64,000 nt of DNA from Mustelus asterias (lineage: Eukaryota): positions 36,394,001-36,458,000 of the forward strand of contig NC_135819.1 in the NCBI RefSeq assembly GCF_964213995.1. The letters are read 5' to 3'. Positions within the stretch are counted from its first letter, which is position 1; each line of letters begins with the position of its first letter. The notes under the pieces are model-generated. The model saw only the letters and a list, made by a program, of their open reading frames with translations, made no database searches and was not told where the DNA came from. The position numbers and the translations under genes are program-made. This document shows positions 25,965-60,749 of this stretch, piece by piece.

Positions 25965-26440
25965 TCTATTTGATTTGATTTGATTTATTATTGTCACGTG
26001 TACTGGGGTATAGTGAGAAGTATTGTTTCTTCCGCACTATACAGACAAAACATACTGTTCGAAGAGTACATAGGGGAGAAGGAAAGGAGAGAACATAGAA
26101 CAGTACAGCACAGAACAGGCCCTTCGGCCCACGATGTTGTGCCGAGCTTTATCTGAAAAGTATGAAGAGAGGATGCAGAATATAGCGTGACAGTCACAGA
26201 TAGGGTGTAGAGAAAGATCAGATTATTAGAAAGGTTAAAGGAGTTAGAGTTAAGTTTTAAGAGCTTAGAATGAGAGTTAAAGATGTGCGGGTTAGGTGGA
26301 TTGGCCATGCTAAATTGGCCCTTAGTGTCAGGTGGGGGTTAGTAGGGTAAATAAGTAGGGTTATGGGGATTGTGGTCAGTGCAGACTCGATGGGCCAAAT
26401 GGCCTCCTTCTGCACTGTAGGGATTCTATGATTCTATGAA
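25965..26440. mobile_element. Rex tail (minus) with an inserted CR1 tail, followed by the 3' half of an HE1 SINE (plus)
   Basis: Direct matches to other copies in the window. Confidence 0.75.
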
Positions 26441-30684: not shown

Positions 30685-31115
30685 GCAAAATTCCAACGGA
30701 TGCTGGAATCTGAAACAAAAACAGAAAATGCTGGAAAATCTCAGCAGGTTTGACAGCATCTGTGGAGAGAGAATAGAGCCAATGTTTCGAGTCTGGATGA
30801 CCCTTCATCAGAGCTGACTCGAAACGCTGGCTCTATTCTTTCTCCACAGATGATGCTGTCAGGCCAACTGTACTTTAGTGCCTTGCTTGTTATCTCCAAA
30901 TATTTTTTGGGGGACAAACATTAAATAGACACAAGAACAGAGGATGCTGGAAAAGCTCAGCAGGCCTGGCAGCGTCCGTTAGGAGAGAAAGCAACGCTAA
31001 CGTCTCGAGTCCCTTTGGCTCTTCTTCAGAACAAACGGACTCGAAACGTAAACTCTGCTTTCTCTCCTTATGGATGCGGAGTTTTTCTGGCAGCCTCAGT
31101 ATTTTTTGCTTCTTA
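30685..31115. mobile_element. Two adjacent Penelope-type inverted-repeat remnants with minimal hammerhead motifs. Relatives at 9505-9560, 37570-37660 and 50800-51680
   Basis: gatgctggaa..ctcagcagg..tgrcagcatc arms in inverted orientation. The minus strand reads agct-CTGATGA-agggtc-atcca-gactc-GAAAC-att-ggct. Confidence 0.7.
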
Positions 31116-33038: not shown

Positions 33039-34129
33039 GCTAGTGTGTACGCTGGGCTAACTCTAGCACAGTCCCCATTGGAGGGAACACTATAAAGAAC
33101 ATTTTTTGCTGGAATATAGAATAGGCTTCACAACGTTTCATTATTCATTTGTGGGACATGGGCGTCACTGACCAGGCCAGCATTTATTGCCCATCCTAAG
33201 TTGCCCTTGAATTGAGTGGCTTGCTGGGCCATTTCAGAGGGCAGTTGAGAGTCAACCACATTGCTGTGGCTCTGGAGTCACATGTAGGCCAGACCAGGTA
33301 CCGACGGCAGATTTTCTTCCTTAAAGGACATTTGTGAATCAGATGGGTTTTTCCGACAATTGACAATGGTTTCATCAGCAGATTCCTAATTCCAGATTTT
33401 TTTTTACTGAATTCAAATTCCACCATCTGCCGTGGTGGGATTCAAACCCGGGTCCCCAGATCATTAGTGGAGTTTCTGGATTAATAGTCCAGCGATAACA
33501 CCACTAGACCACTGCCTCCCTACAATTGATTTTGATGAATTTGCAGGGAAATCCAATTGGCACCAATCAGATTTGAACCAATCTCGGTCATTTCATATTA
33601 ATCGCCAGAAGTTAACATTGCCACCAACGGGCAACCCAGTTCACAGGGAATAAAACCCTGTAAACATCTAAAGACACAAAAGTTTGTGAGCCGTCTCATA
33701 TCCCTTGCCACGTGGTACCATGTGAAAAGCTTGGAGAAGCTCCCCACTTGCTGCCTGCACTGCAGGTCTTTAAGAACTTCCTCGGATTCAGCCTCCGTGA
33801 CTCTTAGATGAAGCATAAATTCATGTTTGTTAGCGGAGAGGTCAACTTGATGCTACTTCGGTGAGGTGGACCATTTGTCTGCAGTGAGAGCTGACATTTG
33901 ATTGGGTCGGGGAAGGACAATGGGAAAGTCCGGGAGGCAGTGCACGCTGGCTTTGGGCCTCTTGTGCATTTGGTGCTCTTTGGGTTCATGGCCACGACCC
34001 GAAGGTACCCAAAGGTTGAGACATTTCTGTTGCCTTTAAAAAAATGTTTTTACTTCATCCTTAAAGTTACAAAGCCAATGCTCAGAGTCGACCGGGCAAA
34101 CCGGAATCCATTCCTTGCTTGCTCCAAAA

Positions 34130-34580
34130 ACCAAATTCAAAATCCAATTGAATCCAATTCATGATCCCCACAAGGGAGACAAACAAAATCCAAGCTGACA
34201 AGATAAGGATTTGCACCCCAGCTTGGGCTTGGTCTGATGCTTGATCTTAACCAAAAGGCCAAGAATTTTTTTTGTTAGCTACATCCAATCAAATCCAATC
34301 AAAGTCAAATTCAAAGTCTCAACCAGTGAGACATTACAGATCCAAGCTGACAAGACATGCTGGCCGCTTCCTGTCTAGGGCTTGATCTACATGATCCAAG
34401 TTGATAGGAGCAGGCATCGCACCCCCTCCAGTGCCTGATCTCATTTGCATCTTAGCCAAAAGGCCGAGATGCCGTTTGTGAAAAATTGCTTCAAGTGAAG
34501 CCTCAGTGAAACCTCGTTGACTTCTATGAAGTGCAGGACTGCCAATACGACACTTGATCTTAGCCAAAAGGCCTAGAATG
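34130..34580 (-). mobile_element. Tandem units headed by U2 snRNA 5' fragments (Keno/Tx1 5' region or SINEU-like)
   Basis: U2 nt 6-39 at 34578-34545 (32/34), nt 4-27 at 34472-34449 (23/24) and nt 6-31 at 34265-34240 (24/26), compared with the vertebrate U2 5' sequence. Confidence 0.75.
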
Positions 34581-34784
34581 TCACCTCTCCATTTGGCACC
34601 CTGAGGTGCCACTTGGACTGGGGAACAGAACCTAATGTATAAGCACACTCAAACTCTTACTCTTCAAAGTGTACCTTGTATCTTGTGAATGTTCAGGCTG
34701 GAATTTCTACACATTTAAAGTCAATTGGCAAAATATTTAGGTGATAATTTGTAAAAATGTGCATTTTTAGAAAAAAATTTCAGT

Positions 34785-35624: not shown

Positions 35625-35831
35625 ACAGTAAGAAGTCTCACAACACCAGGTTAAAGTCCAACAGGTTTATTTGGTATCACGAGCATTCGGAGCGCTGCCC
35701 CTTCATCAGATGAGCCCCACTCCCATGATGAAGGAGTGGGGCTCATCTGATGAAGGGGCAGCGCTCCGAATGCTCGTGATACCAAATAAACCTGTTGGAC
35801 TTTAACCTGGTGTTGTGAGACTTCTTACTGT
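35625..35831. repeat. Perfect palindrome: 99-bp arms, 9-nt loop, Penelope-derived, with a hammerhead motif in each arm
   Basis: 35625-35723 is the exact reverse complement of 35733-35831. Confidence 0.92.
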
Positions 35832-36484
35832 GCCCATCCCAGTCCAACGCTGGCATCTCCATGTCATCATATACAAGATATACAGCACAGAAACAGACCA
35901 TTGTCTCAACCACTCCATGGGGGGTGTACATGTTCCAACAAACCCCCTCTCACATTTTTCTCATTTAAATCTGCCATTTCTCTGAGCCTTTTCTCCCCCA
36001 TTATCTTTAATTTGCATCCTTTTGTTCCTGACCTTCCAGGCAGTGGAAACAGTTTCTCCTTATTCACTATAAAAAAAACCCTTCAGAATACTGAATACCT
36101 CGATCAATCCTCCCCCTAATCTCTGCTCGAAACAGAAAACCACAGTCTCTTCACATAACTGAAATCCATCATTGCTGATTCTAGTAACTTTCCTCTTCAC
36201 TCTCTTTCAGGCGTTAATGACCCAGAATCTCCAAGAGTTTGGACAGGGTGCATAATCTGCCCAATAGGATTTTAGGCGGAGTCTTTGCACCTTCCAATGC
36301 TATTTCCAGCGGGAATGGAAGGGCTGGACACTGTCAGGAGACAAACTGTCGAAAATATTCCACCGCAGCGATGTCCCCTTTTCTCATCGCGCCCCTTAAG
36401 GTCTGCCTTCACTTACTGGAGTTGCATTATTTTAAGTGGAGCTGCCAATCTCAACATTGCACAGGCTTACCTCCCCCACCCTCA

Positions 36485-37195
36485 GCCCCACCCCACCGAC
36501 AGCACTCACCCTCCACCCCCACCCCACCGACAGCACTCACCCCCCACCCCAACCCCACCGACAGCACTCACCCTCCACCCACACCCCCACCCCGCCGACA
36601 GCACTCACACCCCACCCCCATCCCCACTCCACCGACAGCACTCACCCCCCACCCCCACCCCACCAACAGCACTCACCCTCCATCCCCACCCCCACCCCCA
36701 CCCCACCGACAGCACTCACCCCCCACCCCCACCCCACCAACAGCACTCACCCTCCACCCCCACCCCCACCCCGCCGACAGCACTCACCCCCCACCCCCAT
36801 CCCCACTCCACCGACAGCACTCACCCCCACCCTCATCCCACCGACAGTGCTCACCCCCACCCCACCGACAGCGCTCACCCCCACCCCCACCCCGCCGACA
36901 GCAATCACCCCCACCCCCACCCCGCCGACAGCGCTCACCCCCACCCCCACCCTGCCGACAGTGCTCACCCCCCCACCCCCACCCCGCCGACAGTACTCAC
37001 CCCCCACCCCACCCTGCCGACAGTGCTCACCCCCACCCCCACACCGACAGTGCTCAGCCCCCACCATCCGACAGTGCTCACCCCCCACCCCGCTGACAGT
37101 GCTCACCCCCCCTCCCCTACCCCTGCCCCGCCGACAGTGCTCACCCACCTCTCCCACCCCTGCCCCGCCGACAGTGCTCACCCCCACCCGCCTCC
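36485..37195. repeat. C-rich minisatellite (ccgacagcactcacc + cccca runs)
   Basis: More than 20 variable-length units; source of the Pro/His/Thr-rich ORFs. Confidence 0.95.
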
Positions 37196-58880: not shown

Positions 58881-59094
58881 GGGGAGCATGGCGAAGGCAG
58901 GGGGTGACTCTCAGCAGCTCCCCCTTCCAATGCCAGGTCCCTCGATCTTGACACCGAGTGCCTCCGAATGAGGAACCCCACAGGTTGTTATGCTCCCCCA
59001 CCCCCTGCTGGTTAATACCAGCAGCAGCGAGACGAGGCCCTTCATTGAGCATTGATTGCCCACTTAAGGACCTCAGTTGATGGTGGCCCATCCC

Positions 59095-59365
59095 ATCATG
59101 AACTTACTGGGCTTGCTGTAAACAGGTCCAAGGGGGTTGTCCAACCTGACTGACTGTTCCTCTACTGTGGATATATTTGTGACTGGGTATCTCTGGAGAG
59201 GGAGCATGAGGTGTCCACGGGCACTATTGAGGCCTTCCGTGCTCGGTGGGCACCCCAGGGACTGGGGTGCCTTATTGATCCTTATAAGCACCTTTCAGTT
59301 CGATGTTTAATGTTTCATTTCTAATTTGTTTTTGTTTGTGCTGTCCCTCAGTTTGTTTAATTTAG
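59095..59365 (+). mobile_element. Tx1-clade LINE ORF2 C-terminal remnant
   Basis: Reads LAVNRS...VSLEREHEVSTGTIEAFRARWAPQGLGCLID, followed by a T-rich 3' UTR. Confidence 0.65.
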
Positions 59366-60749
59366 TTTAGCTGGTTAACAACAAAAGAGTTGGACTTAAT
59401 TGGGGTAAACACAGTAAGAAGTTTAACAACACCAGGTTAAAGTCCAACAGGTTTATTTGGTAGCAAAAGCCAAAAATTGGGGTGGCAGTGGAGAGATGAC
59501 GAGATCCCAACTGGCCTTCTGAGTAAATGCATCTCCCGCCACCAAACTCACCACAGGGGAGGGCCCAAGATTCCACCTGTAATCTTTCCTTGTACTGCAG
59601 ATGCTTCATTAAAAGTAAAGGTTTACACCTCCTCTTCCAGTGAAATATTAATGTAGCATTTGTTCCAATTTTATGGGACGTGGGCATCGTTGGGTGGGCC
59701 AGCATTTATTGCCCATCCCTAATTGCCCTCCATTCCAGAGGGCATTTTGAGAGTCAACCACATTGCTGAGGATCCGGAGTCAGATCAGGCAAGGATGGCA
59801 GATTTCCTTCCCTAAAGGGCGTTAGGAAACCAGATTAATTTTTACAACCATCAACAATGGTTCCAGGGTCATCTTTAATTCCATATTTTTACTGAATTCT
59901 AATTTCACCATCTGCCATGGTGGGATTCAAACCCGGGTCCCCAGGTAATTACTCTGGGTGTCTGGATTCTAGTCCAGTGACAATACCACTATGCCACTGC
60001 CTCCCATTCACCCCCTGCACTATCGCGATAAGCACTGAATGTGGCTCCATCTGGAACCACGTCCATAACAATCTCACACAGTAAAGATCTACATATTACG
60101 ACATTTAAAATTTGATCAGTGAAATATATGAAAAACCAAAAGAAAATGTCTATTTACTGAAAAGTTTTCTTCTGCTTACTATAGCTCTCCAAATGTTGGG
60201 CACATAGCCAAGAACTTGATTTGTTTTGCAAACAGGAATAAAGGACGGCGTCTTCAGATGAATAGAAAGTGAACTACAGAAACGTCCACGTTTTCTCCCA
60301 GCTGATTTCCTTCATTAAGGCTTGCGTTGGACATTTCATCTGTTCCCTAATTGATTGATTTTGGTCCCTGGCCACAAAACTGTTCAATCTTTCATCAGCC
60401 AAGGCACTAAAATAATATTTATTTTCTCTGTTAATTTTGACTGCAATTTGTGTGGGCACTGACTGATTCCCTGTTGGGCAATGGTTCTCATGACTGTAAC
60501 CTACCCTAGAGTTTTGTACCCAATTTCCCTATTTTCATGCTCAAGCCTTTACAGTAGGCGGACAATTATTATTATTCCCTTAGAGACAGATCACTTTAAA
60601 AAAGAGATTCAAACTTCCTGTTCATAGCTGAAAGCATTAGACAGCAAGATTTCACATTTTCACTCTTTTACTGTAACAAAGGACTCACCACACCATTGAC
60701 TAAATTCTATCTTTGTAGGCATTTATCCCTTAAACCTCAAAACAGGCTG

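Follow-up and report, generated by a model that had tools for sequence, protein, structure and literature searches.

What kind of sequence joins several pieces of spliceosomal RNA end to end within one shark intron, and was it ever mobile? The question is raised by a block in the window, the whole 64-kb stretch (64,000 nucleotides) of Mustelus asterias contig NC_135819.1 that was analysed. The snRNA-derived block is a 510-base run on the minus strand and contains decayed U2 pieces together with a likely U4 piece and with three predicted hairpin modules related to one another. An earlier reading made from the sequence only had placed it in sense to the host pre-mRNA. This is borne out to the extent that the minus strand carries an exon of a class II PI3K at 25984–25601 (match to a PI3KC2-alpha structure, E 5.7e-10), so the block lies sense in the host intron.

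The U2 heads and the layout of the block

The sequence-only reading described three minus-strand U2 5' fragments (nt 6–39, 4–27 and 6–31), and alignment to each of three Rfam-verified U2 sequences (L073, L104 and L105) places all three within 339 bp. The label "fish-type" for these references is drawn from their sequence. They belong to a set of 41 U2 loci (L072–L112) from a public contig collection, 16 of which were scanned by Rfam, with 16/16 passing at 153–192 bits. The loci are eukaryotic genes in contigs filed as prokaryote MAGs, likely through host contamination, and some of them are tandemly arrayed or have U1, U5 and 5S genes as neighbours. A search for the U2 motif in viral contigs returned only one locus, which is not U2.

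The three heads are 92–96% identical to fish-type U2. Head 1 (34545–34578) corresponds to U2 nt 6–39 with mismatches at nt 10 and 35, the latter within the branch-site pairing hexamer. Head 2 (34449–34472) corresponds to nt 4–27 with one mismatch, and its predicted stem I is lengthened (-15.9 kcal/mol vs -8.2 in reference U2). Head 3 (34240–34265) corresponds to nt 6–31 with two changes (nt 10 and 21), both located in predicted stem I pairs. The 20-nt core of head 3 is unique in the 64 kb at up to five mismatches, and no further head-like site is found elsewhere in the window. The octamer said to overlap the second head is present on the plus strand at 34443–34450, at the junction of head 2 and module 2a, and is one of seven such octamers in the 64 kb. 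It is about as easily explained as a by-product of the changes that lengthen stem I.

Read along the minus strand, head 1 is fused directly to a likely U4 segment (34544–34499) corresponding to U4 nt ~13–47, the 5' stem-loop region, with a 10-nt insertion. A Sm-site-like T-run at 34489–34481 follows, which weakly resembles the U4 3' region in a by-eye comparison with U4 loci. Head 2 is followed by hairpin module 2a (34441–34392), with a 5' arm like U2 24–31, a new inner helix and a 3' arm like U2 44–62, and then by module 2b (34388–34338), which opens with an exact match to U2 24–31 (34388–34381). The remainder of unit 2 (34337–34274) contains a hairpin at the position of U2 stem IIb (34332–34316) and short repeats derived from the region before the Sm site. 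As had been claimed, the middle unit ends in an A-run directly before the next head (eight A at 34273–34266), and the short hairpins attributed to the unit bodies are present in predicted folds. Head 3 is followed by hairpin module 3 (34235–34186) and by the body of unit 3. Unit 2 is approximately 200 nt long with its eight terminal A; unit 3 is trailed by only five A (34051–34047), and unit 1 is without an A-run.

Eight CCAAT words occur on the plus strand between 33525 and 34540 (e.g. 33553–33578, 34075, 34144–34154 and 34285–34295), several at 10-nt spacing, out of 106 in the whole window. The pre-Sm region of U2 is the likely source of those inside the units.

Older U2 cores and a predicted hairpin module

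The statement that no head is followed by the rest of U2 proved wrong for unit 3, which runs on as diverged U2 nt 44–160 at 34203–34068 by profile and alignment. The match is colinear, with 75–76 identities in 114–116 aligned columns, and covers a stem IIa remnant, a hairpin at the stem IIb position, a degenerate Sm site (34132–34124), stem III and the 5' arm of stem IV. The shared "body" of the units is therefore old U2. The proposal that the two downstream units share this body holds in that the unit 2 tail aligned to unit 3 outscores 2124/2124 background windows, but what is shared includes three homologous hairpin modules and not two bodies. A LINE-derived tail for unit 2 was considered and rejected, as its likeness to the tail at 59.3 kb is equalled by 64/2942 background windows and the unit 2 tail aligns better to the U2-derived region of unit 3 (0/2124).

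A head-less U2 profile (U2 nt 39 onward) searched with nhmmer has its top match in the 64 kb at 34137–34068, with an E-value of 0.06 when built with 12 references and 0.046 when built with three. Dinucleotide shuffles reach the body score in 0/1000 cases for unit 3, 11/1000 for 2b and 320/1000 for 2a, which alone is not significant, and the local alignments of 2b and 3 both begin at U2 nt 44. Strict Smith-Waterman alignment does not separate the bodies from background (27–290 of 1598 windows score as well as unit 3). With its head removed, the unit 3 body is matched to U2 by Rfam only at E 0.77, and the 2b body alone gives no match. Across U2 44–70, six true U2 genes keep 23–27 of 26–27 positions, compared with 17–20 of 26 in units 2b and 3. 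Taken with the 92–96% identity of the heads, these values indicate, on sequence comparison, that young, near-intact heads sit on much older U2 cores.

At the junctions of Keno (Tx1 clade) and Utopia elements, U2 resumes at nt 39 (PMC4640811). If insertions of this kind had broken up a genuine U2 gene or array, this would account for head 1, which ends at nt 39 beside the 38/39 site, and for a 12-nt match to U2 40–51 inside module 2a. The Keno break-point had been put forward in the sequence-only reading, but it carries little weight: a stop near 38/39 is seen in head 1 alone, heads 2 and 3 ending at nt 27 and 31, and in 2b and 3 U2 picks up again at nt 44 rather than 39. The match in 2a is the one equalled in 320/1000 shuffles, none of the units contains the target hexamer, and neither an element body nor any element with a confirmed ORF stands between a head and the resumed U2. 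An interrupted U2 gene is thus largely refuted for units 2b and 3 and is highly unlikely as an account of the block.

Modules 2a, 2b and 3 are each about 50 nt long and are identical in pairwise comparison at 32, 33 and 35 of 50 positions (64–70%). All follow one plan, with a start like U2 24–31, approximately 24 new bases replacing U2 32–43 and an end like U2 44–62. Both the segment that pairs with the branch site and the site targeted by Keno/Utopia fall in the replaced nt 32–43. Pairing of U2 with the branch site needs the hexamer at nt 33–38, and an intact copy of this hexamer is absent across 34040–34620, from which it is inferred that branch-site pairing would be impossible for any of the units. 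Folded singly on the U2-sense strand, all three modules give one and the same predicted hairpin (z -1.1, -1.6 and -2.2), with weaker folding of the opposite strand, and the summed minimum free energy is reached by 7/1000 shuffles. Across the three modules 43/48 pair cells are paired, three of them through two-sided changes, and one column holds three different Watson-Crick pairs. In a neutral-decay simulation with an equal number of stem changes, run at three transition rates from 4 of 36 equally good ancestors, both counts (paired cells and two-sided changes) are reached at P 0.0002–0.007. The covariation tool's own shuffles give modest values (8, 15, 27, 48 and 60 of 500), on a basis of three sequences from which the structure itself was derived. 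Conservation of the predicted hairpin by compensatory change is thus suggestive and not firm. No additional copy of the module is found elsewhere in the 64-kb window. The body motif has 0 matches in metagenome contigs, a collection not expected to include the host.

Compensatory changes in both the hairpin and stem I could also belong to an expressed, functional variant snRNA or an intronic regulatory RNA that keeps stem I and the hairpin and cannot read branch sites. Such an RNA would be in keeping with the octamer, which precedes the notional start of unit 3 by 173–180 nt, and with the sense orientation of the block to the host pre-mRNA. The distal element of snRNA promoters, however, sits near -220 (PMC4494074). 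The Rfam RF00004 scores of the block (36.7 and 27.7 bits) are below the gathering score of 46, the Sm sites are degenerate and stem IV is incomplete. A functional variant is very improbable.

The same changes bear on the idea that U2 (and U4) retropseudogenes clustered at one locus, grew by local duplication, decayed and were never a mobile family. Truncated snRNA pseudogenes commonly arise as one-off products, as do snRNA-LINE chimeras (PMC4494074; bioRxiv 10.1101/2025.02.02.635956), and the window contains no second copy of the block. No TSD is found either, the best flank repeat being 9 nt with one mismatch and located away from the block ends, although old copies of SINEU often lack visible TSDs as well (PMC4494074). 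Neutral decay poorly explains near-intact heads on cores that are 30–35% diverged, and it poorly explains a hairpin kept with two-sided changes; a pseudogene cluster is accordingly considered improbable.

The U4-like segment and the flanks

The likeness of the segment after head 1 to U4 was at first an assumption of ours. The U4 references were obtained with a pattern made from the segment and from the expected U4 sequence, which gave 70 metagenome loci; 18 of the 19 scanned pass Rfam as U4, and five sequences form the profile. The best match of this profile in the window is at 34548–34499 (E 0.025) and 0/1000 shuffles score as well against it, in a test that is partly circular because the references were selected for the motif. 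Against other references, the segment's score is reached by 186 (U1), 111 (U5) and 787 (U2 body) of 1000 shuffles. Real background windows score as well as the segment in 0–73 of 5274 cases, depending on the scoring scheme, and Rfam gives no match to the segment alone. A U4 origin of 34499–34544 is likely from these comparisons. Profiles of U1, U5 and 5S, each built from one to three non-vertebrate-type references, have no match in the block. Eight of the U4 copies in metagenome contigs (L008, L013, L029, L035, L043, L054, L056 and L063) break near nt 60–80 into unrelated sequence and are likely truncated retrocopies.

On the 3' side of the block, a putative frame of 159 codons with two stops lies on the minus strand at 33999–33523 and may belong to unrelated flank. 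This frame is central to the proposal that a decayed Tx1-Mar or Keno-like LINE left the block as its 5' UTR, under which the frame would be an ORF1 remnant cut by a SINE at 33520. LINEs of the Tx1-Mar group do carry U1 or U2 heads (PMC4494074), the frame has only its two stops, and 14 CpG occur in 33525–34040 vs 0 in the 200 nt upstream of the block. An ATG is located at 34024, in another frame than 33999–33523. The frame matches no Pfam family in six frames and sub-pieces, and two protein libraries, PDB and Atlas are also negative. A phmmer search of 1.84 billion proteins gave one match, to a FliK-domain protein that is judged to be chance, and the single PDB match (E 0.29) is taken as chance. 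These negatives are weak for the region behind the block, as the word-index search also missed the remnant at 59.1 kb. The openness of the frame is equalled by 126/2400 frames of that length in the window, and the internal run of eight A better fits separate retroposed units than one UTR. A LINE 5' UTR is thus unlikely, though it keeps an appreciable share of the probability.

The Tx1 ORF2 remnant reported at 59.1 kb is a decayed plus-strand frame (59016–59385) followed by a T-rich tail. It resembles Tx1 C-termini and is presumably a Tx1 ORF2 C-terminus, an assignment that Pfam and the protein search leave unconfirmed. A fourth unit at 33640–33522 was tried and rejected, with 50 and 68 of 2124 background windows scoring as well. 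Among other features of the window, a perfect inverted repeat with two 99-nt arms set 9 nt apart is located at 35625–35831, and a C-rich minisatellite with units of 30–43 nt occupies 36442–37000. A long hairpin at 30755–30854 scores 45 bits against Rfam mir-3202 (gathering score 90) and belongs to a repeat that has further occurrences in the window.

Relation to known snRNA-linked retroposons

The SINEU elements are reported from crocodilians only, and SINEU-1 and SINEU-2 gained U1 or U2 heads repeatedly (Kojima 2015, PMC4494074). SINEU-3 consists of the first 32 nt of U2 joined to a later 83-nt part of U2 and occurs in tandem insertions (PMC4494074). Typical SINEU elements are under 500 bp with a 3' A tail, are dispersed in many copies and show a preference for Mariner-N4. 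The block resembles SINEU-3 and SINEU-1 in having short, non-coding units of U2 pieces in which a 5' part to about nt 31–32 is joined to a later part of U2. The repeated 5' addition of snRNA, the partial internal duplication, the A-run of unit 2 and the tandem arrangement are further points of likeness, and the 5' U1/U2 head feature of SINEU is represented by the three U2 heads. Whereas SINEU-3 has a deletion of approximately 50 nt, the block has nt 32–43 replaced and a new predicted hairpin in their place. It also carries the likely U4 piece, none being described for SINEU, in a comparison drawn with the descriptions of SINEU and not with consensus sequences.

Among the Tx1-Mar LINEs, Tx1-11_Crp carries a U2 head and Tx1-2_Crp, Tx1-2B_Crp and Tx1-4_AMi carry U1 heads (PMC4494074). 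Both these elements and the block would place snRNA-derived sequence at the 5' end of a Tx1-related retroelement, but the block has several heads and cores in series with no confirmed ORF behind them. Chimeras of U6 with L1 and other snRNA-LINE chimeras similarly acquire an snRNA in sense orientation at their 5' end as they retrotranspose (bioRxiv 10.1101/2025.02.02.635956). These are one-off products that do not propagate themselves, whereas the compensatory changes in the block suggest a replicating lineage.

The description of the block as a snRNA-headed retroposon holds for its anatomy, which fits the SINEU / Tx1-Mar kind in that its bodies derive from old U2, as in SINEU-3, and its heads show far less divergence; the terms "family" and "system" are unproven. 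It is a real, composite snRNA-derived block and probably a variant of that kind, distinguished by the predicted hairpin in place of the branch-site segment and by the likely U4 piece. The best explanation, to which we assign an even chance, is a dead SINEU-like retroposon candidate in which an old U2 core took up fresh snRNA heads by template switching.

Such a retroposon would be a non-autonomous element copied by a Tx1-type LINE. An ancestral U2 copy would have lost the branch-site segment and then replicated for long enough that its hairpin, kept under selection, could diverge with compensatory changes. Loss of the branch-site hexamer would end U2 function and would also spare the RNA from U2-targeting elements. 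On completing a cDNA, the partner reverse transcriptase would repeatedly have jumped to cellular snRNAs, from which it gained new 5' pieces, the U2 heads earlier and the U4 piece and U2 6–39 subsequently at the far 5' end. The head-to-tail units may have arisen by adjacent insertion or, as for modules 2a and 2b, by internal duplication. As snRNA promoters are external, transcription would have relied on an outside, flanking Pol II promoter.

A shark candidate family of SINEU-like elements, independent of those in crocodilians, with a selected hairpin in place of the branch-site/Keno-target segment and repeated 5' capture of U2 and U4, is a tentative proposal that we hold to be less likely than not. 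No report of a shark snRNA-headed SINE or of a U4-headed Tx1 element was found in the openly accessible literature that was searched. The matched passages of PMC5381603, PMC5786205, PMC5753468, PMC4758252, PMC7922186 and bioRxiv 10.1101/2025.02.02.635956 make no mention of a shark SINEU or of a U4 head. Should the block prove to be single-copy, it would amount to no more than an unusual pseudogene cluster. If the proposal is true, a family of snRNA-headed SINEs would for the first time be known beyond crocodilians, and it would be the first such family with U4, as far as the literature searched goes. How snRNA-headed SINEs are transcribed and recognised is a stated open question (PMC4494074), and the predicted hairpin would then be a testable candidate for what SINE transcription or LINE recognition needs. 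With a conserved structural module in a second, independent case, it would become visible which changes are selected as a spliceosomal RNA becomes a retroposon, namely the loss of the branch-site segment and the gain of a hairpin.
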